From the IMG/VR virus record IMGVR_UViG_3300042731_008053: a stretch of 64,000 nt of DNA. The stretch is one strand, 5' to 3'. Shown in pieces: positions 1-51,496 of the stretch. Numbering within the stretch: position 1 is the stretch's first letter; each line of letters starts with the position of its first letter. The position numbers and the translations under genes were made by a program. Below the pieces are notes generated by a model, which saw only the letters and a list, made by a program, of their open reading frames with translations, searched no databases and had not been told where the DNA came from. This stretch comes from a virus.

Positions 1-2227
1 CTGTAATGCAGTACGCGATGTAGTCCCGCTTAGCGATATTCGTCGCGATTTTGTCAGCAACGTCTCTATGCCAGGCCCAGACGACGACAGGCTCTTCACC
101 GGCAAGCACACGGGACGCCACGTCCACTGCCAACTTTGCCTTGTACTGCCCGATGAGGCGTCGAAACCGCACCATGTCGCCTGCGGCGACGCGGCGTTTA
201 CTCGGATCGCGAATTTTCTCGGCTGCAACTTCGAGCTTGAACAGCTGACTTTCTGTGAGGTCGGCCACCTCGACGGTTCGCTCCGACGGAGGTAGATCCT
301 CTAGTACGTCGCGCCATTCACGACGAATCATGACCTCAGCTATTCGTAGTTTGAATTCAGCTTCGTTCGAGCTACCATCGTAGCGTGTACCGTAGGCCGT
401 AAGCTTCGGGGCGCAGTATCGCTGAGCAAAATCGTAGTACGAATTCCAGGCTCCAGGGTTGACTACTGACAGAATTGTCCAAAGCCCGATGGGCCGATTC
501 CATAGCGGCGTGCCGGTCGCAGCGATGACACGCTCAGCGCGGGACGCAAGTAGAATTGCAGCCTGACTGCGTTTCGATCGACGGTTTTGTAGAATGTGCG
601 CTTCGTCGAATACGAGTGTTCCTGGACGGCGTAGACCCATATTCTGGTGAGCTTGGAGGATGTCGTAGTGGATGAAGATACACGGCGCATCGCTGATCTT
701 CGTCGGGTCATATTTTCGTCCCCGCAAGACGACAGGTTCGACGTCAGGCCAACGCCGTTTCATCCAACCGACCCAGACAGCACGTGTAGCCAGCGGTGCA
801 ACAATGACGAGAGGCCCGAGGCCCGGATCGTGGGACATCACGCTTGTGGCCGTGTTGTGCGTGACAATAAAGCCATCAGTGACGTAAAGCCCGCGCTTCG
901 TTGATACTTGGATGCAGCGCGTTTCTTTCTCACCAACGTACTCAACGCTTTCAAGGCCTCGCGCCAGGCGGCCCTTCGACCAGCGTTGCGTTTTTCGAGC
1001 CAACAGAAACGGGTTGGCGGGCAGCCGGATGTGAAGTCGATAAGACGGGCGCCCTTCACGTTTCTCGCCACGATACGAATACTGTGGCGCCGCCTTGTAG
1101 TAAACCGAGGCAAAACCTCCCAGGCTTTCAATCAACGCACGTACGTCATCTTTCAGACGTGTAGACACTGTATTGTACGACGTGATCCGCTCCTCGGTGA
1201 CGTCTCCGTCTGTGTCCATCAACCCGTGCAAGAGTGCTCGCCGCACAGGAACCGACGCGGAAAGATATTGGACTGGAATGAATTTGTCTTGTGCACCACA
1301 GCCCCACAACTTCAGCGCACGCAGTGCTGTCGTTAGCTTGTTTTCTTGCCCTGCTGGACTGGACAATCGCCAATCAACACCACCAGCAGCTTTGGGTACG
1401 ACGCCGTAAGCTGAGAGGGACGGACGAATGCGATCTAAAATCTCCCGCTCAGACGTTGAAATCTCGGGCGTGCCGCTGCGCAGCATGCCGTTTCCCAGCA
1501 AGCAACCCAACAAGTACGGTTCGACGAAGAGATCGGTATCTTCGCCTTCAGGCGGTCGGCACAAAGGTAAAAAGAAACGGCGGTTGCCGCGCCCCCACGA
1601 TCGGCTTGGCGTCTTGATCCAGAGGTTGTCTTTGAACGTTTTGAGCGCACGTGGACGCGGATCTCCGCCGCGCCACCGAGAATGCGCAGTATGCAACAAC
1701 CACAAATGATCTTCGTCGCACTCGGTACTCCGACCATCGCACGTCGTGACGCGGTAGACCCGTTGGCGTCCCCGAGGAAAAATATCTTCCACCACGCCTT
1801 CGCCACCGTCGGGATCAACGACTCGGCTGCCTACAATTAGATCGCCCATCGTTTTCCACCCTGTGGGCGTCAAAACGCATGCATCTAATGGCTGCCCTTT
1901 CCCCAGTCTCATCTGATCGGCCAGCAACGTCCCTCGTCGCGCATGGATAAACTCGCGACCTTCGTGTTGGTATGGACGCAGTTTGAACCCCAGTGGTTCT
2001 GTCGATGCATCTAGGCGACTACGCGCCGCCTGGTTCTCCAACGGCACGTTCAAAAACGGGTGCACTTCAGGGTGCGCTTGCGCCAGCAGGGGTAGATGAG
2101 AGCGGTGGACACCACCTGCACTGCCCAATAACGTCACGCCTGGTACGCCAGCCAGCTCCGGCAGCCATTCGGCGGGCACGACGAACCAGTCGGGTCGTCG
2201 AGCGAAAGGCGTGACGACGGGATTCAT
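1..2227 (-). CDS. SNF2-family DEAH-box helicase, N-terminal part (C-terminus runs off the left edge of the window); interrupted by an intein
   Basis: Manual translation of the reverse strand gives an open frame from ATG at complement(2225-2227) to the window edge with no stops. Motifs seen: RPYQHEG (Q motif), LADQMRLGK (P-loop), VIVAPLATRAVW (Ia), LVFDEAHILQN (DEAH box), AATGTPLWN (III), EPVVVWAWHRDVADKIA (IV region). The ORF track omits it because it lacks an in-window stop. Confidence 0.8.
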   Translation of the reverse strand, partial: MNPVVTPFARRPDWFVVPAEWLPELAGVPGVTLLGSAGGVHRSHLPLLAQAHPEVHPFLNVPLENQAARSRLDASTEPLGFKLRPYQHEGREFIHARRGTLLADQMRLGKGQPLDACVLTPTGWKTMGDLIVGSRVVDPDGGEGVVEDIFPRGRQRVYRVTTCDGRSTECDEDHLWLLHTAHSRWRGGDPRPRALKTFKDNLWIKTPSRSWGRGNRRFFLPLCRPPEGEDTDLFVEPYLLGCLLGNGMLRSGTPEISTSEREILDRIRPSLSAYGVVPKAAGGVDWRLSSPAGQENKLTTALRALKLWGCGAQDKFIPVQYLSASVPVRRALLHGLMDTDGDVTEERITSYNTVSTRLKDDVRALIESLGGFASVYYKAAPQYSYRGEKREGRPSYRLHIRLPANPFLLARKTQRWSKGRLARGLESVEYVGEKETRCIQVSTKRGLYVTDGFIVTHNTATSVMSHDPGLGPLVIVAPLATRAVWVGWMKRRWPDVEPVVLRGRKYDPTKISDAPCIFIHYDILQAHQNMGLRRPGTLVFDEAHILQNRRSKRSQAAILLASRAERVIAATGTPLWNRPIGLWTILSVVNPGAWNSYYDFAQRYCAPKLTAYGTRYDGSSNEAEFKLRIAEVMIRREWRDVLEDLPPSERTVEVADLTESQLFKLEVAAEKIRDPSKRRVAAGDMVRFRRLIGQYKAKLAVDVASRVLAGEEPVVVWAWHRDVADKIATNIAKRDYIAYCIT
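854..1879 (-). mobile_element. Intein (about 342 aa) with LAGLIDADG homing-endonuclease domain, inserted in the helicase P-loop region
   Basis: In-frame insertion between LGKGQPLDA and TATSVMSHDPGLGPLVIVAPL. Starts with Cys (CVLTPTGWKTMGDLIVGSRVV, block A-like). Contains EPYLLGCLLGNGML and LLHGLMDTDGDV (two LAGLIDADG motifs). Ends GLYVTDGFIVTHN followed by extein Thr (block G, HN/T). Confidence 0.65.
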
Positions 2228-2275
2228 GCCACTTAGCTATCACGTCGCGCTGACAACCGTTTTGCGTTCACGCAG

Positions 2276-2301
2276 CGTGTACATTTTTTTGTGTGTACAC
2301 G
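2276..2301. promoter_or_regulatory. Inverted repeat CGTGTACA-T7-GTG-TGTACACG in the divergent promoter region between the helicase and the VirE-like gene
   Basis: Two palindromic TGTACA cores 12 bp apart flanking a T7 run, in a 280-bp intergenic gap between divergently transcribed genes. Confidence 0.3.
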
Positions 2302-2506
2302 TTGTGGATAACTCCACGTTTTTGTCTATACATCGGTACCCTACGATTTCGCATGCCTGCAGCAACCTTGTGGACAACCGGCAAGACGCCAATCAACGGT
2401 TGACGGTCTGACTGTCAGTCGTGTTAGCTGCGCAGGCCGATGAGGACCGCTCGCTTGTGTCACACCAATTGTGTAAGGTCGATCGTCTCGCAGAAAGGAT
2501 CGACGC

Positions 2507-4135
2507 GTGTCGAACAACGTGATCCAGGGAAACTTCGGGACAACTGGACCAGCACAAACTACACCGCCCGGTGGAGGCGGGGGCAAAAGAGGCAGCGGTT
2601 CGTCTGCGGCGGTCAGCCGGTACGACGTCTGGACGCTCCGGCACAACAAAAAACGGTTCAAGACCAAGGACGCCGTTGTGCGCGCGTTGTTCAACTACAT
2701 CTGGAACCGCGAAGTCAACGTCGATGGCGGTTCGTTCATCCTGGCCGACGACGGGACGTGCTTTTTACTCACGGGCGACACCCACCAGCTCTATCGCGTT
2801 TCGGCCAAGGATCGCGATTTCTGCGCACACATCTGGTACAAGTACGGGCTGCTACAAACCGAGCAGGTCACACGTCACATCATGACCTCCATTGAACACT
2901 ACAGCCGTAAGCTCGGACGGCAACGCGAGCTGCGACGCTTCGTCCATTTTTGCAAGCGCACGTTGACACTCTACGTGTCCCGTTACGACGGCACGTGCTG
3001 GCGGATCGACGGCAGCGGCAAGTGGCGCGTGGTGCCGAACGGCACCGGTGGGGCACTGTTCATTGACGACGATGGTGGCGTTACGGTCGAAGATCCCCTT
3101 ATCGGCAACCACGGCGTGCTTTTGCCAACGCTGACCGAGGAGTTGAACTACGCCCCGAGCAACAACGGTATGGACGCTACGAGTCAAAAACTCGCGCTCA
3201 GCACGTGGCTGTTTGCGACAGCATTCCCGGATTTGATGCCCGCAAAACCCATGCTTCTGGTCGAAGGTGATCGCGGATCGGGCAAAACGACTGCGATCAA
3301 AATGATCCAGGTAGCTCTGCACGGAACGCTCAAGACGCACAACATCCGGCGCAACGACGAGAACGACTTTGCTATTTACGTACTTCGCTCGCCGTTGTGT
3401 TTACTCGACAACGCAGACTCGTTCGTGGACTGGCTTCAAGACACGCTGTGCACGTACGCTACGGGCGGCGTGTGGACACGTCGCAAACTGTTCACCGATT
3501 CAGATCAGGTCGAGCTGCGTCCGCAATCATTCATCGCGATTACCAGCCGCAACCCTGTCACGTTCAAACGCGACGACGTAGCCGATCGCTGCATCATCGT
3601 CCGCATGGGTCGCCGCACTGACTTCACACCCGAAGCGATCCTGATGCAGCAGATCGAAGACAAGCGCCACCTGCTGTATGGTGAGTGGCTCTGGTTTCTC
3701 GATCAGATCGTCAAACGCATCCGCGCGGGCGGCCTGAACAAGGTACCAGCCGGCTCGTTCCGCATGGCCGACTTCACGGCCATCGCACACGTCATCGGCA
3801 TGGCCATCGGCGCGACCAAGGACGAGGTCGCGACGATGCTCGAAGGCATGGAAGCCGAGCGCGACACGCTCGTCGCTGAGGGCGATCCTCTCCTCGACCT
3901 GCTCGACAAGTGGCTCGAAGACAGCCGCAATGTCGGCAAACCCATCACAGCCGCTGCACTCTTCAAAGCGTTGTCTGACATGGCGCGTGGTGGCAACCGG
4001 TCGTTCTACAAGTCACCGTCTACCCTCGCACAAAAGTTGCGACGCGACACGGTCTCGAAACACTTCGACGTCAGACAGGTCGGAGTGCAAGGAAACGCGA
4101 AGCTCTATGAAATCCGACGCAAGTCCGACAAGTAA
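2507..4135 (+). CDS. VirE-like / D5-type P-loop NTPase (primase-associated helicase-like)
   Basis: Walker A LLVEGDRGSGKTT, Walker B CLLDNADSF, then GGVWTRRKLFTD, FIAITSRNPV and ADRCIIVRMG, in the order and spacing typical of VirE (PF05272)-type NTPases of phages and plasmids. Confidence 0.6.
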   Translation: MSNNVIQGNFGTTGPAQTTPPGGGGGKRGSGSSAAVSRYDVWTLRHNKKRFKTKDAVVRALFNYIWNREVNVDGGSFILADDGTCFLLTGDTHQLYRVSAKDRDFCAHIWYKYGLLQTEQVTRHIMTSIEHYSRKLGRQRELRRFVHFCKRTLTLYVSRYDGTCWRIDGSGKWRVVPNGTGGALFIDDDGGVTVEDPLIGNHGVLLPTLTEELNYAPSNNGMDATSQKLALSTWLFATAFPDLMPAKPMLLVEGDRGSGKTTAIKMIQVALHGTLKTHNIRRNDENDFAIYVLRSPLCLLDNADSFVDWLQDTLCTYATGGVWTRRKLFTDSDQVELRPQSFIAITSRNPVTFKRDDVADRCIIVRMGRRTDFTPEAILMQQIEDKRHLLYGEWLWFLDQIVKRIRAGGLNKVPAGSFRMADFTAIAHVIGMAIGATKDEVATMLEGMEAERDTLVAEGDPLLDLLDKWLEDSRNVGKPITAAALFKALSDMARGGNRSFYKSPSTLAQKLRRDTVSKHFDVRQVGVQGNAKLYEIRRKSDK

Positions 4136-4406
4136 TCCCACCGCTGCTCAACTCATTCAGGACGCTCTCGAACAAGGTAACTACGTTGATCGTGAACGGA
4201 TGGCGCCCGTGTACGCTCAGCTCGCGATCGCTGAACGTCTACACGAGCTGACTATCGCCATCAACGAAGTCAATCGAACGTTGGCGGCCATGACCCTGGC
4301 TGGTCAAATGGATCTCGCCGTCAAAGGTGACGCCGTTAGAGTCGTAGGTGAGATTCTTCAAGGTGCTCTCAACGCCAACATGGTTGTGCACGAGGTTACG
4401 TCGTGA
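4107..4406 (+). CDS. hypothetical protein
   Basis: Internal ATG of ORF 3930-4406 lying just before the stop of the upstream gene; alpha-helical small protein. Confidence 0.35.
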   Translation: MKSDASPTSNPTAAQLIQDALEQGNYVDRERMAPVYAQLAIAERLHELTIAINEVNRTLAAMTLAGQMDLAVKGDAVRVVGEILQGALNANMVVHEVTS

Positions 4407-4684
4407 AAAACCTCACCCGCGTTGTCAATATGCACTTCGAGCGGTGCGATGTCATCGTCGATCGCTCGTCGATGTTCGGCAACCCGTTCAAGGCTGGTCG
4501 TGACGGCAATCGCCTTCAGGTCATCGAGCGGTACCGGAGTTGGTTCGTGAGCCGTCTTGCCGATCCAGCCTTTCACGCCGAGGCAGAAAAGCTCAAGGGC
4601 AAGGTGTTGGGTTGCCACTGCGTACCCAAGCCGTGCCATGCACACGTCATCGCTGCGTGGTGCAACGGGGAGCTGGCAGCATGA
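4403..4684 (+). CDS. DUF4326 family protein
   Basis: VVNM..CDVIVDRSSMFGNPF...IERYRSWF...LKGKVLGCHCVPKPCHAHVI matches the DUF4326 signature common in phages. ATGA overlap with the next gene. Confidence 0.7.
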   Translation: MKNLTRVVNMHFERCDVIVDRSSMFGNPFKAGRDGNRLQVIERYRSWFVSRLADPAFHAEAEKLKGKVLGCHCVPKPCHAHVIAAWCNGELAA

Positions 4685-4974
4685 GTCCCTATCACTGCCC
4701 AGGCTGCGGGCGACTTGTGGCGGATTGTTTGTGCGAAACACCCCACCCCAGAAGCCGCCGCGCGCTTCAGCAGCGGCTATCAACACGTCAGGGTGATGCA
4801 GCACCGGTCTACATGGATCTCATCCGGATCGAAGGCGTGGAGTTCGAGCGCACCGAAGTCGGCTCGCTCAAAATCCACGCACCCGGAGCGAAACCCAAGT
4901 ACGCGTCGGCTGCCAAGGCGCGCGATCTGTTGACGTTTTTACTCCAGAATTTTTCTGCGACGGGGGACGCATAG
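4681..4974 (+). CDS. hypothetical zinc-binding protein
   Basis: ATGA overlap with the DUF4326 gene; CPGCGRLVADCLCE cysteine cluster. Confidence 0.4.
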   Translation: MSPYHCPGCGRLVADCLCETPHPRSRRALQQRLSTRQGDAAPVYMDLIRIEGVEFERTEVGSLKIHAPGAKPKYASAAKARDLLTFLLQNFSATGDA

Positions 4975-4976
4975 CA

Positions 4977-5237
4977 ATGAAACCGTTGCCAGATGTCCTC
5001 GACGAGTGCCTCCCAGTCACAGCTGACACAGCTCGTCGCCGCGCTACCGCACCGAACTACCGCGTGGCTGTAAGGGTCACCCACACGATTGAGGTCGATG
5101 TCAAGGCCAAGCACAGCCGGGACGCTGCCCACGCAGCTGTGGATAAATTGAGGACAGCAAGAATCCGGATCGACGGGATCGAAGAGGAGATCTCAACACC
5201 AGAGATCGTTTCGGTACGAGCGCGCAGAATCGACTGA
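4977..5237 (+). CDS. hypothetical protein
   Basis: ORF track; starts 3 nt after the upstream stop. Confidence 0.4.
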   Translation: MKPLPDVLDECLPVTADTARRRATAPNYRVAVRVTHTIEVDVKAKHSRDAAHAAVDKLRTARIRIDGIEEEISTPEIVSVRARRID

Positions 5238-5297
5238 ATTTCGATCGCCAAAAACTTGCGTGATTAGATCGAAGCGTGTAGCAAAGACGGGTCGGGG

Positions 5298-5879
5298 ATG
5301 TTGGTCACCAAAAAACAAACTGTGACGGAAGAACGCGTTGTCACCGAGGACATCTTGTGCAACGTGTGCGGCGGCAGCTTGCTTCAGGGGGACTGCGGCC
5401 CGGAAGGTGTGGTCGAGCACGAAATGACGTGCGGCTACGACTCCCGTCTGTTCGGTGACATGACGCGCCTGAAGTTTTCCATTTGCGAGTCGTGCTTGTT
5501 CGAGTGGAGCCGCAACTGGAAGTACAGTCCGATCCATCCTACTGATGAGTGGTGGCGTTTTTGGAACGCGGGTTGCGTCTGTCGTCATCCTTCAGAGGGT
5601 TCTGAGTGCCCCGCTCTCGTTGAAGAAGACTGTCCCGTTCACGGTAACAGCGCACCTGGGGTAACACGCCTGCACTGCGACCCCACACCAAATTATTGCC
5701 TCAATCAGGACTACCGCTGCACGTGTCCTGGCAACCTTCTCGACAGTGTGTACTACCGCACTGCCATTAACCCTCGTTGTAACCAGCACGGCGAGCGTCG
5801 TCCAAGCGACGCGCGCAGCAAGGAAGGAACCGAAACCGATGACGAGAACCGTTCCCCAGTTCGCGATGACAGCCCGTGA
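5298..5879 (+). CDS. hypothetical Cys-rich protein
   Basis: 193-aa ORF with many CxxC pairs; SD-like GGGGA upstream. Confidence 0.5.
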   Translation: MLVTKKQTVTEERVVTEDILCNVCGGSLLQGDCGPEGVVEHEMTCGYDSRLFGDMTRLKFSICESCLFEWSRNWKYSPIHPTDEWWRFWNAGCVCRHPSEGSECPALVEEDCPVHGNSAPGVTRLHCDPTPNYCLNQDYRCTCPGNLLDSVYYRTAINPRCNQHGERRPSDARSKEGTETDDENRSPVRDDSP

Positions 5880-6234
5880 TGTTGTCCTGTTGCCCGACGT
5901 CCCGCAAGACGAACCCTTCATCGACTGGTTCGGTGTTCCACTTCACCGAGAACAGTTTGAGGGCGAAAACACGCTCGAAGCGTTCGCCGGCACCAGCGCG
6001 CCCCAAGGCGGTAACGTCGATCACGGTGCCCAGACCGTGTTGATGGTGAGCGATCTGGACGCCACAGCGTTCACGTCGATCCGGGTCTTGATGCACGAAG
6101 ATGCCGAAACGCCCAGTGGATTTGCAGTCATTCTCGGCGGCGACTCCGAGGCAGCAACGTTCGCTGACGCACTGGAGTTCGCGGCAAAAACGATCCGACG
6201 CCAGCTCAAACAGAACCACGCTGGTCAGGGTTGA
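5839..6234 (+). CDS. hypothetical protein
   Basis: Internal ATG of ORF 5746-6234 overlapping the end of the upstream gene; acidic protein. Confidence 0.4.
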   Translation: MTRTVPQFAMTARDVVLLPDVPQDEPFIDWFGVPLHREQFEGENTLEAFAGTSAPQGGNVDHGAQTVLMVSDLDATAFTSIRVLMHEDAETPSGFAVILGGDSEAATFADALEFAAKTIRRQLKQNHAGQG

Positions 6235-6430
6235 TCGATTTTGCAGTACTTCAAACCGATCGACACCCACGTGACGTATGCGCGCTGCGCTGAACCGTGG
6301 CGCCGCCACAGTCACGAGACCGGCACGTGTCGCGTCAGGAACACAGTCGCCCACATGGCCCTTCGGTAAACGGCAATGCGCTCAGAGATCTATGCTCACC
6401 TGGCGCCCGATGCGTTTGAGGGGGTGCGAC

Positions 6431-6459
6431 GTCTACCTGAGATGAATGCTGTTGGAAGA
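6431..6459 (+). promoter_or_regulatory. Conserved motif copy 1: GTCTACCTGAGATGAATGCTGTTGGAAGA
   Basis: One of three near-identical copies (see 6824 and 11375). Here the internal ATG opens only a 9-codon frame; the next gene starts 57 nt downstream. Confidence 0.5.
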
Positions 6460-6515
6460 TTGGCCGTGTGAGGTGTGCACTTCTTGCTGCTCTTGAACGG
6501 GGATCCAGGTAAGCC

Positions 6516-6854
6516 ATGGAACGGTACAAGACAACCCATGATCCAACCGGACGCGTATGGCAGATCGAAGATACGCTCGTCAGCGGGGGTCGCCAGCGCA
6601 ACAACCGAATCGTCGCCCAGAACCTCAACTACACTGACGCACATTGCATCGTCGATCTCCTGAATCTCGGCGACAACACCGAGCTGAAGCGTGACGTGGA
6701 AGTCTACAGCAACGCGCTGGCAGCAATCGTCGCGACAGGCGGCAAGGCACCTGAGTGGTATCGCCAAACGGCTGCGGATGCGTTCAGCCAACGCAACAAC
6801 GAACGGAACGCCGCCGCTGATACGTCTACCCGAGATGAATGCTGCCGGAAGTAA
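6516..6854 (+). CDS. hypothetical protein
   Basis: ORF track; the 3' end contains motif copy 2. Confidence 0.5.
   Translation: MERYKTTHDPTGRVWQIEDTLVSGGRQRNNRIVAQNLNYTDAHCIVDLLNLGDNTELKRDVEVYSNALAAIVATGGKAPEWYRQTAADAFSQRNNERNAAADTSTRDECCRK
6824..6851 (+). promoter_or_regulatory. Conserved motif copy 2: GTCTACCCGAGATGAATGCTGCCGGAAG
   Basis: 25/28 identical to copy 1. The ATG at 6835 is in frame with the downstream gene. Confidence 0.5.
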
Positions 6855-7464
6855 ACGGATCATGCCGCCCTGGAAGGGTTTGGGGCTCCGTGCCTACCCT
6901 GAAGCGGTCGATGACGCCCTTTCGCGAAAACTGGATTGTGCGCGCGTCTGTGCATTGATCGGCAACGCCGAAGATCGATGGCTGATGGGCAAGGTCGCTA
7001 TGACGAACACGTGGGACACGTACATGTTGTTCCATCTCACGAATGACAGCGCTGCGTTGCTGTCGTGGGTCAACGCGGCCCGTGGACGTGAGTGTCGAAC
7101 CTACGATTGGAAACTGGCTGAAGGATCGCTGTTGGATCTCTGGGAGACGCTTCCCACGACTGTTCAACGCCAGCTAATCACCGTGCCTTTGTTTCGTCTC
7201 AAAGAGGACGCTACGCCCCCGGATGGTTTGGCCGCTGCTGCCGCTGTCATTGACACTGTCGAACTCAACTTGCTTTCAGCCCTTCCACTTCAACCTGTCG
7301 CACGCACTCACAACCGATACCAACACCCGTTCGATCTGGCGTGGGCGCTCTACCTCAATTCGTTCTATCCGGGGAAACGGTTGTGGGTCGAGCGCACCGA
7401 TAAAAACCGCGTCGTTCACAAAGAGTACACACAGACCAACGTCAGCACGTTCTACAACGATTGA
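6835..7464 (+). CDS. hypothetical protein (alternative start 6862)
   Basis: Frame of ORF 6691-7464. The first ATG lies inside motif copy 2 (MNAAGSKRIMPPW...); no recognised domain. Confidence 0.5.
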   Translation: MNAAGSKRIMPPWKGLGLRAYPEAVDDALSRKLDCARVCALIGNAEDRWLMGKVAMTNTWDTYMLFHLTNDSAALLSWVNAARGRECRTYDWKLAEGSLLDLWETLPTTVQRQLITVPLFRLKEDATPPDGLAAAAAVIDTVELNLLSALPLQPVARTHNRYQHPFDLAWALYLNSFYPGKRLWVERTDKNRVVHKEYTQTNVSTFYND

Positions 7465-7488
7465 TCGATCGAACCCAAAGGAGAATCC

Positions 7489-49432: not shown

Positions 49433-49779
49433 TAGTTGTTTCCTCCAAGAAGGTTTTCGGCTAGCTGACACGCATCGCAGGAGCACGGACCACTGAGGGG
49501 GAAACGGTATCGATGATTGCGCAGCATAGCCGCCAGGGCCCCGCGCAGTTCCTCGGTCTCAGACAATACAGCCTCGTCGATCAGCTTCTGGATGGCCGAT
49601 GTTGCTGCCTGTGCAGCCTCGTCGGTTGAGTCCTCAGCATAAATAGCGTCGGTGAGATCCAGGATCCGTCCGACCGTGATCGACTGCTTTTCCACGTCTT
49701 CTACCGTAGCATTCAAGCAGGTAAACTCCCTATGGATTCTTGGGTCAGGCACGTGTCGGGTAAAAAGAGTCGCTGGCAA
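49432..49779 (-). CDS. hypothetical protein
   Basis: ORF track. Confidence 0.4.
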   Translation of the reverse strand: MPATLFTRHVPDPRIHREFTCLNATVEDVEKQSITVGRILDLTDAIYAEDSTDEAAQAATSAIQKLIDEAVLSETEELRGALAAMLRNHRYRFPLSGPCSCDACQLAENLLGGNN

Positions 49780-51496
49780 AGTAAAGGTTGTTGCGCTTCT
49801 CGACTAGCTTGTTCGATGTCAGTGCAGACAAATAGTTAGCGAACGTAGAGGACCGCGTCGAATGTCCAGCGGCCTCTGCAATTTCATTTCGACCCATTCC
49901 CTGGGGATAACACTCAACGAGCAGCCTGAGCATCGTCTTGGCGTTTCCCGGCAGTTTGGGTAACCACAACTCCAGCAATCGTTGAGTCGTCATGACGGGT
50001 ACAGTGTCGCGACCACCGACTGCATCAAGACCTGTTTTGGTCAGGACGTAAGGCGCGTTTCGGCCGCCGTCAATGTATCCGGCCGTACGCAACGTCGAAA
50101 GGTAGTTGTTGAACGTGCTCGACTTGATGCTGAAACCCGACAAGGTGGACACCTGGCTACGTGTCAACGGGGTGGGGTGCAAAGACGCAATGGCCATGAG
50201 GATCTTGGTTGGGCCGCTTCCCAATCCGTTGGGCTTAGGTGTTGAGGACGCAACGCTAGTTTCGACTGTTGGTGATGGCGCTGGAGGTTTTGCGACACCG
50301 TTAGAGCGTTTGGGGACTGCGGAACTACGCGGCGGTGTCGATGTCGATGAAGGTGAGCCCAGTTGCACGCCGGCCTCATGCAGGGCGCTGCGGATCGACA
50401 TGATTGTGTCCTGAACGACCTGACCCATTCCGTGCAACCTGTCTATCGCGTGCTTGAACTGACGCATCTGATCGTCGGTAATCACTGGGACCGCTACCTG
50501 CTCGACGTCAGTGACACGAGTTGCAAGCTCGTTCTTCAGTCGAGACACAGTAGCCTGCGCCGACGACAAGAGTTTGCGAAGGTGCTGCGGATCGCGTTGT
50601 TTTGCTGCCTCAATGGTTTCAGCCATCGCCGCCGACATGGCGTCCAGATCGATCTTGGCGAGCTTTCGCTTGGGCTGTTTGGTGCCAGCTTTTGGTGTCG
50701 CTGAGGTATCGGCTGTGCGCTTTTTGGCGATTTTCACGCGGCCGTAAAAATCAAGCCACTGAGGGCTCCACACGATAGCAGTGCCCGTCGGCAGCTTCGT
50801 AATCACAGCCGCGTCCGCGTCGTGGATTCCCTTATCAGCGATCCACTCTTTGATCGCCTTGCGCTCGTGTGGACCTGTCATCTGGAAGGCGAACAAACAC
50901 TCCGTCTGATTCAGGACGTCCTTGTTGACCTTCTGCGGACGTTGCGAAATGAGCGACACGCCAATGCCGTAATTGCGGCCCATCAACGTCAAATCGCTCA
51001 CGGCGCCAAGCAGACGCTCATCGCCGCCAAGCACTCGCTGTGGAACGAAGTGTTGCGCTTCGTCGATGATCACGTGCAGGGCCGAAGGGGCGTCTTTCTT
51101 TTTGTGGAACAACTCTTCAGCGAAATCGACGACGAACCGTTTGCGGTCGTTTTTGCGAAACCGGCTGAGATCGATGACCATCGACGTGCCCGTTTTGACG
51201 ACAAAATCCGCTACGACGGTACCGCCCGTCGGTTCGAGCGGAATATCTCCGTTGGCGCCACCGAGCACGGGGATCGAGTAGCCGGGCTTGCCGTTTTCGA
51301 GTGTACGTAAGCCCCACCAGTTTCCTACGGGGTCCAAAACAACAACCTGAGTACCAATATCAAGAAGCTCTTCAGCGAGCTTTCCGCACGCATAGGTCTT
51401 GCCGCTACCTCTGCGTCCCATAAACGCGAACGTCTGGGTGACAGCGTCGGTCGGAAGCTTCAGGTTTCGTGCAAGATTAATGGTTCTCTTCTTCAT
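49745..51496 (-). CDS. FtsK/HerA/VirB4-superfamily P-loop ATPase (DUF87/AAA_10-like) with two C-terminal winged-helix repeats
   Basis: FAFMGRRGSGKTYACGKL (Walker A) followed by VVVLDPVGNWWGL; HVIIDEAQHF (Walker B); two repeats of ...TRSQVSTLSGFSIKSSTFNNYLSTLRTAGYI / ...GRNEIAEAAGHSTRSSTFANYLSALTSNKLV (wHTH-like). Confidence 0.65.
   Translation of the reverse strand: MKKRTINLARNLKLPTDAVTQTFAFMGRRGSGKTYACGKLAEELLDIGTQVVVLDPVGNWWGLRTLENGKPGYSIPVLGGANGDIPLEPTGGTVVADFVVKTGTSMVIDLSRFRKNDRKRFVVDFAEELFHKKKDAPSALHVIIDEAQHFVPQRVLGGDERLLGAVSDLTLMGRNYGIGVSLISQRPQKVNKDVLNQTECLFAFQMTGPHERKAIKEWIADKGIHDADAAVITKLPTGTAIVWSPQWLDFYGRVKIAKKRTADTSATPKAGTKQPKRKLAKIDLDAMSAAMAETIEAAKQRDPQHLRKLLSSAQATVSRLKNELATRVTDVEQVAVPVITDDQMRQFKHAIDRLHGMGQVVQDTIMSIRSALHEAGVQLGSPSSTSTPPRSSAVPKRSNGVAKPPAPSPTVETSVASSTPKPNGLGSGPTKILMAIASLHPTPLTRSQVSTLSGFSIKSSTFNNYLSTLRTAGYIDGGRNAPYVLTKTGLDAVGGRDTVPVMTTQRLLELWLPKLPGNAKTMLRLLVECYPQGMGRNEIAEAAGHSTRSSTFANYLSALTSNKLVEKRNNLYFASDSFYPTRA

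Follow-up and report, generated by a model that had tools for sequence, protein, structure and literature searches.

The definition and mechanism of class 3 inteins were given by Tori et al. (PMC2807308), restated in PMC3196547 and treated also in PMC7664689 and PMC6195587. In these inteins the Cys at position 4 of splicing block F (F:4), a position usually occupied by Asp in class 1 inteins, is the obligate nucleophile and gives a branched intermediate at block F (PMC2807308). A DxxH motif replacing TxxH in block B is a further trait of the class and was described for DnaB intein 1 of Mycobacterium smegmatis (MsmDnaBi1; PMC6195587). SNF2 proteins are among the hosts of inteins without an N-terminal nucleophile, most of which reside in the P-loop of an ATPase (PMC2807308), and according to PMC3196547 the Snf2 intein of Deinococcus radiodurans (Brace et al. 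2010) belongs to class 3 and splices efficiently. Here, we analyzed a stretch of 64,000 nucleotides from the virus record IMGVR_UViG_3300042731_008053, which will be referred to as the window. In a gene for an SNF2-type helicase at its left end we identified an insertion that very probably represents an intein of class 3 equipped with a homing endonuclease of the LAGLIDADG type; it separates Lys110 from the Thr in the Walker A motif (GLGK/T, the slash marking the insertion point) of a phage-type SNF2 helicase. The element is a new member of an already described intein class, and no new mechanism is implied.

The DnaB intein of mycobacteriophage Bethlehem (PMC2807308) resembles the window intein in its non-nucleophilic residue 1 (Pro there, Gly here), in Trp at position 12 of block B (B:12), Cys F:4, Thr at position 5 of block G (G:5), the C-terminal His-Asn pair and Thr at +1, as well as in size (341 versus 348 amino acids (aa)) and in having a phage-type helicase as host. 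It differs in that this host is DnaB and not SNF2, and in that the window intein has Gly1 and a block A of the [AGS]QPL type. The DnaB inteins 1 of M. smegmatis and M. chimaera (6bs8, 6rix) share the insertion into the P-loop, the DxxH-x-W of block B and the catalytic Cys of block F with the window intein, but are mini-inteins without an endonuclease, start with ALALDTP and are followed by Ser at +1. PI-SceI (the Sce VMA intein) and other bifunctional inteins, which gave the best fold matches, are likewise built from a HINT splicing domain into which a LAGLIDADG endonuclease is inserted; PI-SceI, however, is a class 1 intein (Cys1, Asp F:4, Cys at +1), and the first LAGLIDADG motif of the window intein ends with Asn. 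As described in the citing literature, the D. radiodurans Snf2 intein resembles the window intein in its class and in having an SNF2-family host.

The host gene is an open frame on the minus strand running from an ATG at 2227 to the left window edge, with 742 codons and no stop. Its product reads ...FKLRPYQHEGREFIHARRGTLLADQMRLGK(110)-GQPLDACVLTPTGWKTMGDL...GFIVTHN(458)-TATSVMSHDPGLGPLVIVAPL... and consists of the following parts:

1898..2227, minus strand: N-extein, residues 1-110 of the SNF2-type helicase, with LADQMRLGK (Walker A through Lys) at its end; read from the translation and alignable with intein-free homologues up to GK

854..1897, minus strand: predicted class 3 intein with LAGLIDADG homing endonuclease, 348 aa, Gly111-Asn458; absent from about 90 GK-T homologues, covered by a profile of relatives that maps to residues 111-458, and matched in the Protein Data Bank (PDB) by sequence and fold

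1..853, minus strand: C-extein, residues 459-742, beginning TATSVMSHDPGLGPL; read from the translation and homologues, the gene being cut by the left window edge

A single Pfam match to SNF2-rel_dom (E 1.6e-18) extends across the insertion (residues 147-661). Of the motifs of the SNF2 N-terminal ATPase, Walker A (GK/T) would be restored by splicing and motif II (DEAH) is seen in FDEAHIL; beyond residue 742, where the window ends, homologues extend over approximately 146 further aa with the Helicase_C domain (PF00271). From these motifs and matches, the host is an SNF2 helicase. An earlier note, made from the letters of the window alone, had reported that the P-loop of an SNF2 helicase harbours a LAGLIDADG intein, and this was borne out by SNF2-rel_dom in the flanks, LAGLIDADG_3 and Hom_end inside the insertion, and the matches to inteins; such an insertion greatly exceeds what chance would produce.

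To define where the insertion begins and ends, a protein database was searched for homologues with the two flanks joined as GK-T. Motif I was recognizable in 99 homologues, 90 of which read GK-T and seven GK-S, the remaining two carrying an insertion. The approximately 90 homologues without an intein follow the pattern LADxMRLGK-TATxV; thus the best one (P0001, 81% identity, 540 aa) reads LADMMRLGKTATCVMSHDPGLGPLI across the site and another (P0008) reads LADQMRLGKTATVVAAHDP. In none of these intein-free homologues was GQPLDA found as ordinary P-loop sequence, nor did any homologous helicase among them carry the inserted segment. The two homologues that deviate both have their insertion at the same point, reading GK/GQPLDAKILTPTGW... 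(P0002) and GK/AQPLDAKILTPTGW... (P0041). As the homologues read GK-T, removal of Gly111 to Asn458 restores the canonical P-loop: excision gives LADQMRLGK-TATSVMSHDP with a normal Walker A motif. At the codon level, the AAA of Lys110 adjoins the GGG of Gly111 (1895..1897), and Asn458 (854..856) is followed by Thr459 (851..853). Consistent with this boundary, the fused exteins of the window match, at the DNA level, the empty site of a syntenic locus (L007). The insertion is in frame, lies at a conserved site, is absent from homologues and restores the motif when removed, and it is an intein on these grounds.

A second line of evidence for the N-terminal boundary came from phmmer searches against the PDB. 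Leu114 aligned to residue 4 of MsmDnaB1, the class 3 intein from the DnaB of M. smegmatis (6bs8, ALALDTPLPTPSGW), which places intein residue 1 at Gly111; the match to gp41-1 starts at the same Leu114, the register of residue 1 being set by 6bs8 alone. The segment CVLTPTGW, taken in the earlier note for the start of block A, occupies block A positions 7-14 in the alignments to gp41-1 and the MsmDnaB1 intein. The in-frame insertion of about 342 aa which that note had placed at 854-1879 was therefore correct as an insertion, but it starts at Gly111 (1897) instead of the Cys and comprises 348 aa; it splits the GKT of motif I after the K and is not placed between motifs I and Ia. The alternative offered there, a start six residues upstream at a Gly with ligation to GLGK-T, agrees with both the homologue boundaries and the 6bs8 alignment.

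Assignment to class 3 is based on residues in four splicing blocks:

1856..1897, minus strand: block A, GQPLDACVLTPTGW, with Gly111 (1895..1897) as residue 1 and Cys117 (1877..1879) at position 7; from the 6bs8 alignment, relatives reading GK/[AGS]QPL...

1700..1717, minus strand: block B core D171-E-D-H174-L-W176, a DxxH motif plus the WCT Trp at B:12 (Trp codon 1700..1702, His codon 1706..1708); H-x-W in all aligned relatives

905..925, minus strand: block F core ETRCIQV, with Cys438 (914..916) at F:4 as predicted first nucleophile and branch point; Cys in all aligned relatives

851..868, minus strand: block G and C-junction I-V-T456-H457-N458/T459, with Thr at G:5, the penultimate His, the terminal Asn and, at +1, the Thr that is also the P-loop Thr; read from the sequence

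The block B Trp aligns with the HLW of gp41-1_WCT (6riz), named after the Trp, Cys, Thr (WCT) triplet, and with the HQW of MsmDnaB1 (6bs8), whose overall sequence match has an E value of 1.5e-6. Cys438 aligns with the engineered Cys of gp41-1_WCT (D107C) and the natural Cys of MsmDnaB1. NCBIfam gave further, weak matches to proteins containing inteins and to the C-terminal splicing region of inteins. The end of the insertion, ...GFIVTHN followed by Thr, had already been read correctly in the earlier note, which had considered the extein junction unusual. A residue 1 that is neither Cys, Ser nor Thr (Gly1), together with Trp B:12, Cys F:4, Thr G:5 preceding His-Asn, and Thr459 at +1, is nevertheless what the published class 3 definition describes. 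As residue 1 is Gly, the canonical N-S acyl shift is not possible as the start of splicing. Engineering work has shown that the WCT triplet alone is insufficient for splicing (PMC7664689), and hence the signature predicts splicing activity without proving it.

AlphaFold2 was used to predict the fold of the intein flanked by 10 extein residues at either end. From an alignment of 30 sequences, it yielded a model with a mean predicted local distance difference test score (pLDDT) of 90.8 and a predicted template modeling score (pTM) of 0.89. The top matches of this model in a Foldseek search of the PDB were PI-SceI (E 7e-17), the endonuclease-bearing inteins TliVMA and PhoVMA, and PI-PfuI. Two mini-inteins of class 3, MchDnaB1 and MsmDnaB1, as well as gp41-1_WCT were matched with target TM-scores of approximately 0.5-0.8 depending on the chain, and the endonuclease lobe matched I-DmoI. 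The model thus predicts a HINT fold in which blocks A, B, F and G are present, in agreement with the phmmer alignments to the gp41-1 and DnaB inteins.

A protein database search with the intein alone retrieved 55 proteins, none of them more than 40% identical. All 27 aligned relatives possess the residues of the class 3 signature, and every relative with a located C-junction reads [TS]HN/[ST] there, only a single one deviating from THN. Where the junctions could be located, the inteins nearly always begin with A, G, S or P, and in most relatives with a readable N-junction this residue directly follows the P-loop Lys. Examples are a PhoH-like relative (GPAGTGK/AQPLD), an AAA relative (GEAGVGK/AQP), a terminase-like relative on an IMG/VR viral contig (GNRGGGK/GLLPSEKVLTPRGW) and P0121 (ILADEMGLGK/SQPLSS), a canonical bacterial SNF2 protein of the DEMGLGK type with approximately 38% identity, which is the nearest SNF2-borne relative found; in some relatives the insertion instead follows a VDWK motif of nuclease type or, in dCTP deaminase, the sequence EGK. 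Judged from these sequences, a Gly1 straight after the P-loop Lys is a recurrent state in the subfamily and not peculiar to this copy. The window intein adds to a well-defined class 3 subfamily of the [AGS]QPL type, most readable junctions of which lie right after the P-loop Lys of varied ATPases. A scan of genome contigs yielded only distant intein relatives, and a profile search of all six frames of the window detected no second intein of the same family. On a 2.3-Mb bacterial contig (L006:4001-6989), an SNF2 gene of the DEMGLGK type is interrupted at the same GK by a related intein of class 3, whose first residues are SQPLSS; this gene is split into several calls, probably by assembly frameshift errors, and the neighbouring ClpB is fragmented too. 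Cys170 (1718..1720, minus strand), four residues before the block B His, is Cys in many members of the subfamily and in gp41-1 (C-x-x-x-H-x-W).

The splicing domain is interrupted by the endonuclease, in which two LAGLIDADG motifs can be distinguished, as stated in the earlier note (Pfam LAGLIDADG_3, E 3e-7; PI-SceI match):

953..1552, minus strand: LAGLIDADG homing endonuclease domain, approximately residues 226-425; Pfam LAGLIDADG_3 and Hom_end, fold matches to PI-SceI and I-DmoI, region deleted in P0002

1487..1513, minus strand: first LAGLIDADG motif, LLGCLLGNG, with Asn246 (1490..1492) at the position of the catalytic Asp; from the alignment of relatives

1205..1234, minus strand: second LAGLIDADG motif, LLHGLMDTDG, acidic residue intact; Pfam LAGLIDADG_3 at residues 328-388

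In LAGLIDADG enzymes, the acidic residue that ends each motif serves to bind the catalytic metal. According to the Pfam and fold matches, the two LAGLIDADG helices lie here in a pseudodimeric alpha-beta fold, and an acidic residue ends the second motif only, the first one ending with Asn. At the position of Asn246, 25 of the 27 aligned relatives have Asp (GDG), GNG occurring only in the window intein and P0123. The acidic residue of motif 2 is kept in all 27, mostly as GLMDTDG, with three reading GLLDTDG or GLMDSDG. Since Asn246 takes the place of a metal-binding Asp, the endonuclease copy of the window is likely inactive or at best a nickase.

Two syntenic loci show the other states of this site. 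In the first (L007:2501-4123, encoding P0001) the site is empty (GK/T), and the helicase gene has the same divergent neighbour of 543 aa, with AAA_24, a family A DNA polymerase and thymidylate kinase downstream. In the second (L005:8001-10055, encoding P0002) the neighbourhood is the same, and a mini-intein of approximately 150 aa occupies the site, from which the endonuclease has been cleanly deleted; 187 residues of the endonuclease region are gapped in the alignment. A recent horizontal arrival of the intein was considered and rejected, as composition gave no signal: the intein has a GC content of 0.562 and a GC content at third codon positions (GC3) of 0.580, both equal to those of the exteins (GC 0.567-0.606). 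The empty site, the mini-intein and the matching GC and GC3 together suggest a long-resident intein that has diverged together with its host gene. One syntenic helicase is thereby seen in three states (empty site, full intein with endonuclease, mini-intein), and an endonuclease decaying in one lineage and lost in another would follow the standard pattern of the homing cycle. The endonuclease would once have driven homing into empty GK/T alleles, the window copy perhaps having been crippled by the Asp-to-Asn change. This three-state snapshot fits the homing-cycle model as well as the association with phages that has been proposed for class 3 inteins.

The change in the endonuclease, which is probably inactivating, raises the question of whether the whole insertion might be a decayed, nonsplicing remnant (pseudogene) like Arth_1007 of Arthrobacter FB24, leaving the helicase permanently inactive. 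Class 3-like inteins that do not splice exist (PMC3196547), and the WCT triplet is no guarantee of splicing (PMC7664689). Arth_1007, however, is without the Cys at F:4, whereas in the window DxxH, W, C, T, H, N and the Thr at +1 are all intact, the frame is open over 742 codons and the exteins are well conserved. Moreover, identity to P0002 amounts to 73-82% in the splicing domains, compared to 65% in the N-extein and 77% in the C-extein, which argues for continued selection on splicing. We thus regard a remnant as improbable, and a splicing-competent class 3 intein remains our reading of the insertion, with no observation speaking against it.

Even less probable, to a degree that we give it hardly any weight, is a class 1 intein starting at Cys117, with a mature helicase that keeps GQPLDA in an atypical Walker A motif (GLGKGQPLDA-TATSV), as considered first in the earlier note. 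The VLTPTGW following this Cys superficially resembles the start of block A, but the approximately 90 intein-free homologues read GK-T directly. In addition, Cys117 is replaced by Lys in the closest intein-bearing relatives P0002 and P0041 (GQPLDAK, AQPLDAK), and position 7 of block A is variable (K, P, E or W) among more distant ones; the 6bs8 alignment puts the Cys at this position 7, and F:4 is Cys instead of the Asp usual in class 1. For annotation this means that looking for a "Cys1" can misplace the boundary of a class 3 intein, the correct mature helicase having a normal Walker A motif. That an error of sequencing or assembly near 1880-1900, such as a frameshift or chimera, fakes the N-junction is scarcely credible, as the frame is continuous, a junction GK/GQPLDA or GK/AQPLDA recurs in two independent metagenomic relatives and the segment belongs to the block A consensus of the whole subfamily.

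With the class 3 assignment, a splicing pathway can be proposed from the published mechanism of the class. Cys438 (F:4), positioned by DxxH-x-W and Thr456 (G:5), would attack the Lys110-Gly111 bond and generate a branched thioester at block F. The N-extein would then pass to the side-chain hydroxyl of Thr459 (+1), cyclization of Asn458 would free the intein, and an O-N shift would yield the mature helicase reading LADQMRLGKTATSVMSHDP with GKT intact. Since the intein in place splits the P-loop, the ATPase should be off before splicing; an inactive ATPase until splicing has been argued for other P-loop inteins (PMC6195587). For MsmDnaBi1, redox control via a Cys48-Cys118 disulfide was shown, and three noncatalytic cysteines are located close to the active site of the window intein, namely Cys117, Cys163 and Cys170. 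By analogy, the intein might act as a conditional, redox-sensitive switch of the helicase, with one of these three cysteines in a reversible disulfide with Cys438, and, separately, the Asn-variant endonuclease might be a nickase and not a dead enzyme; we consider this proposal unlikely.

Several observations on the genomic context concern the nature of the element that carries the helicase. At the DNA level, a blastn search of window positions 1-8000 against a phage collection gave no match to any deposited phage. Among 20 large open reading frames (ORFs) of the window, scans with PHROGs and Pfam detected primases, one terminase-like ATPase and little else, and no clear capsid or tail genes were identified among these ORFs. 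Neighbouring genes in the window encode, among others, a primase-like P-loop protein, a primase of the DnaG type and a HerA ATPase resembling a terminase, and both a helicase relative and an intein relative were found on IMG/VR viral contigs. These neighbours, the synteny with the replication module of L005 and L007, and the IMG/VR relatives point to a phage or phage-like mobile element.

The genes surrounding the helicase in L005 and L007 (AAA_24, a PD-(D/E)XK-like protein, family A DNA polymerase, thymidylate kinase and DUF4326) resemble a phage replication module. Beside the helicase gene, the window itself carries a divergent 542-aa P-loop NTPase (2507..4135, plus strand; GDRGSGKT), for which only weak matches were obtained (phrog_47 DNA primase, ORC-CDC6-like). 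Its counterpart next to the helicase in both syntenic loci is the 543-aa gene mentioned above, which is without a Pfam match. The only packaging-like gene among the 20 large ORFs encodes a HerA/DUF87-like ATPase of 583 aa (49745..51496, minus strand), matching the PHROG terminase large subunit family with an E value of 3.5e-18. Finally, an 881-aa ORF (7489..10134, plus strand) matches the Pfam shoulder domain of the Major Vault Protein (E 5.5e-26) and a vault repeat (E 7.6e-11), a protein type that is unexpected in a phage-like prokaryotic element.

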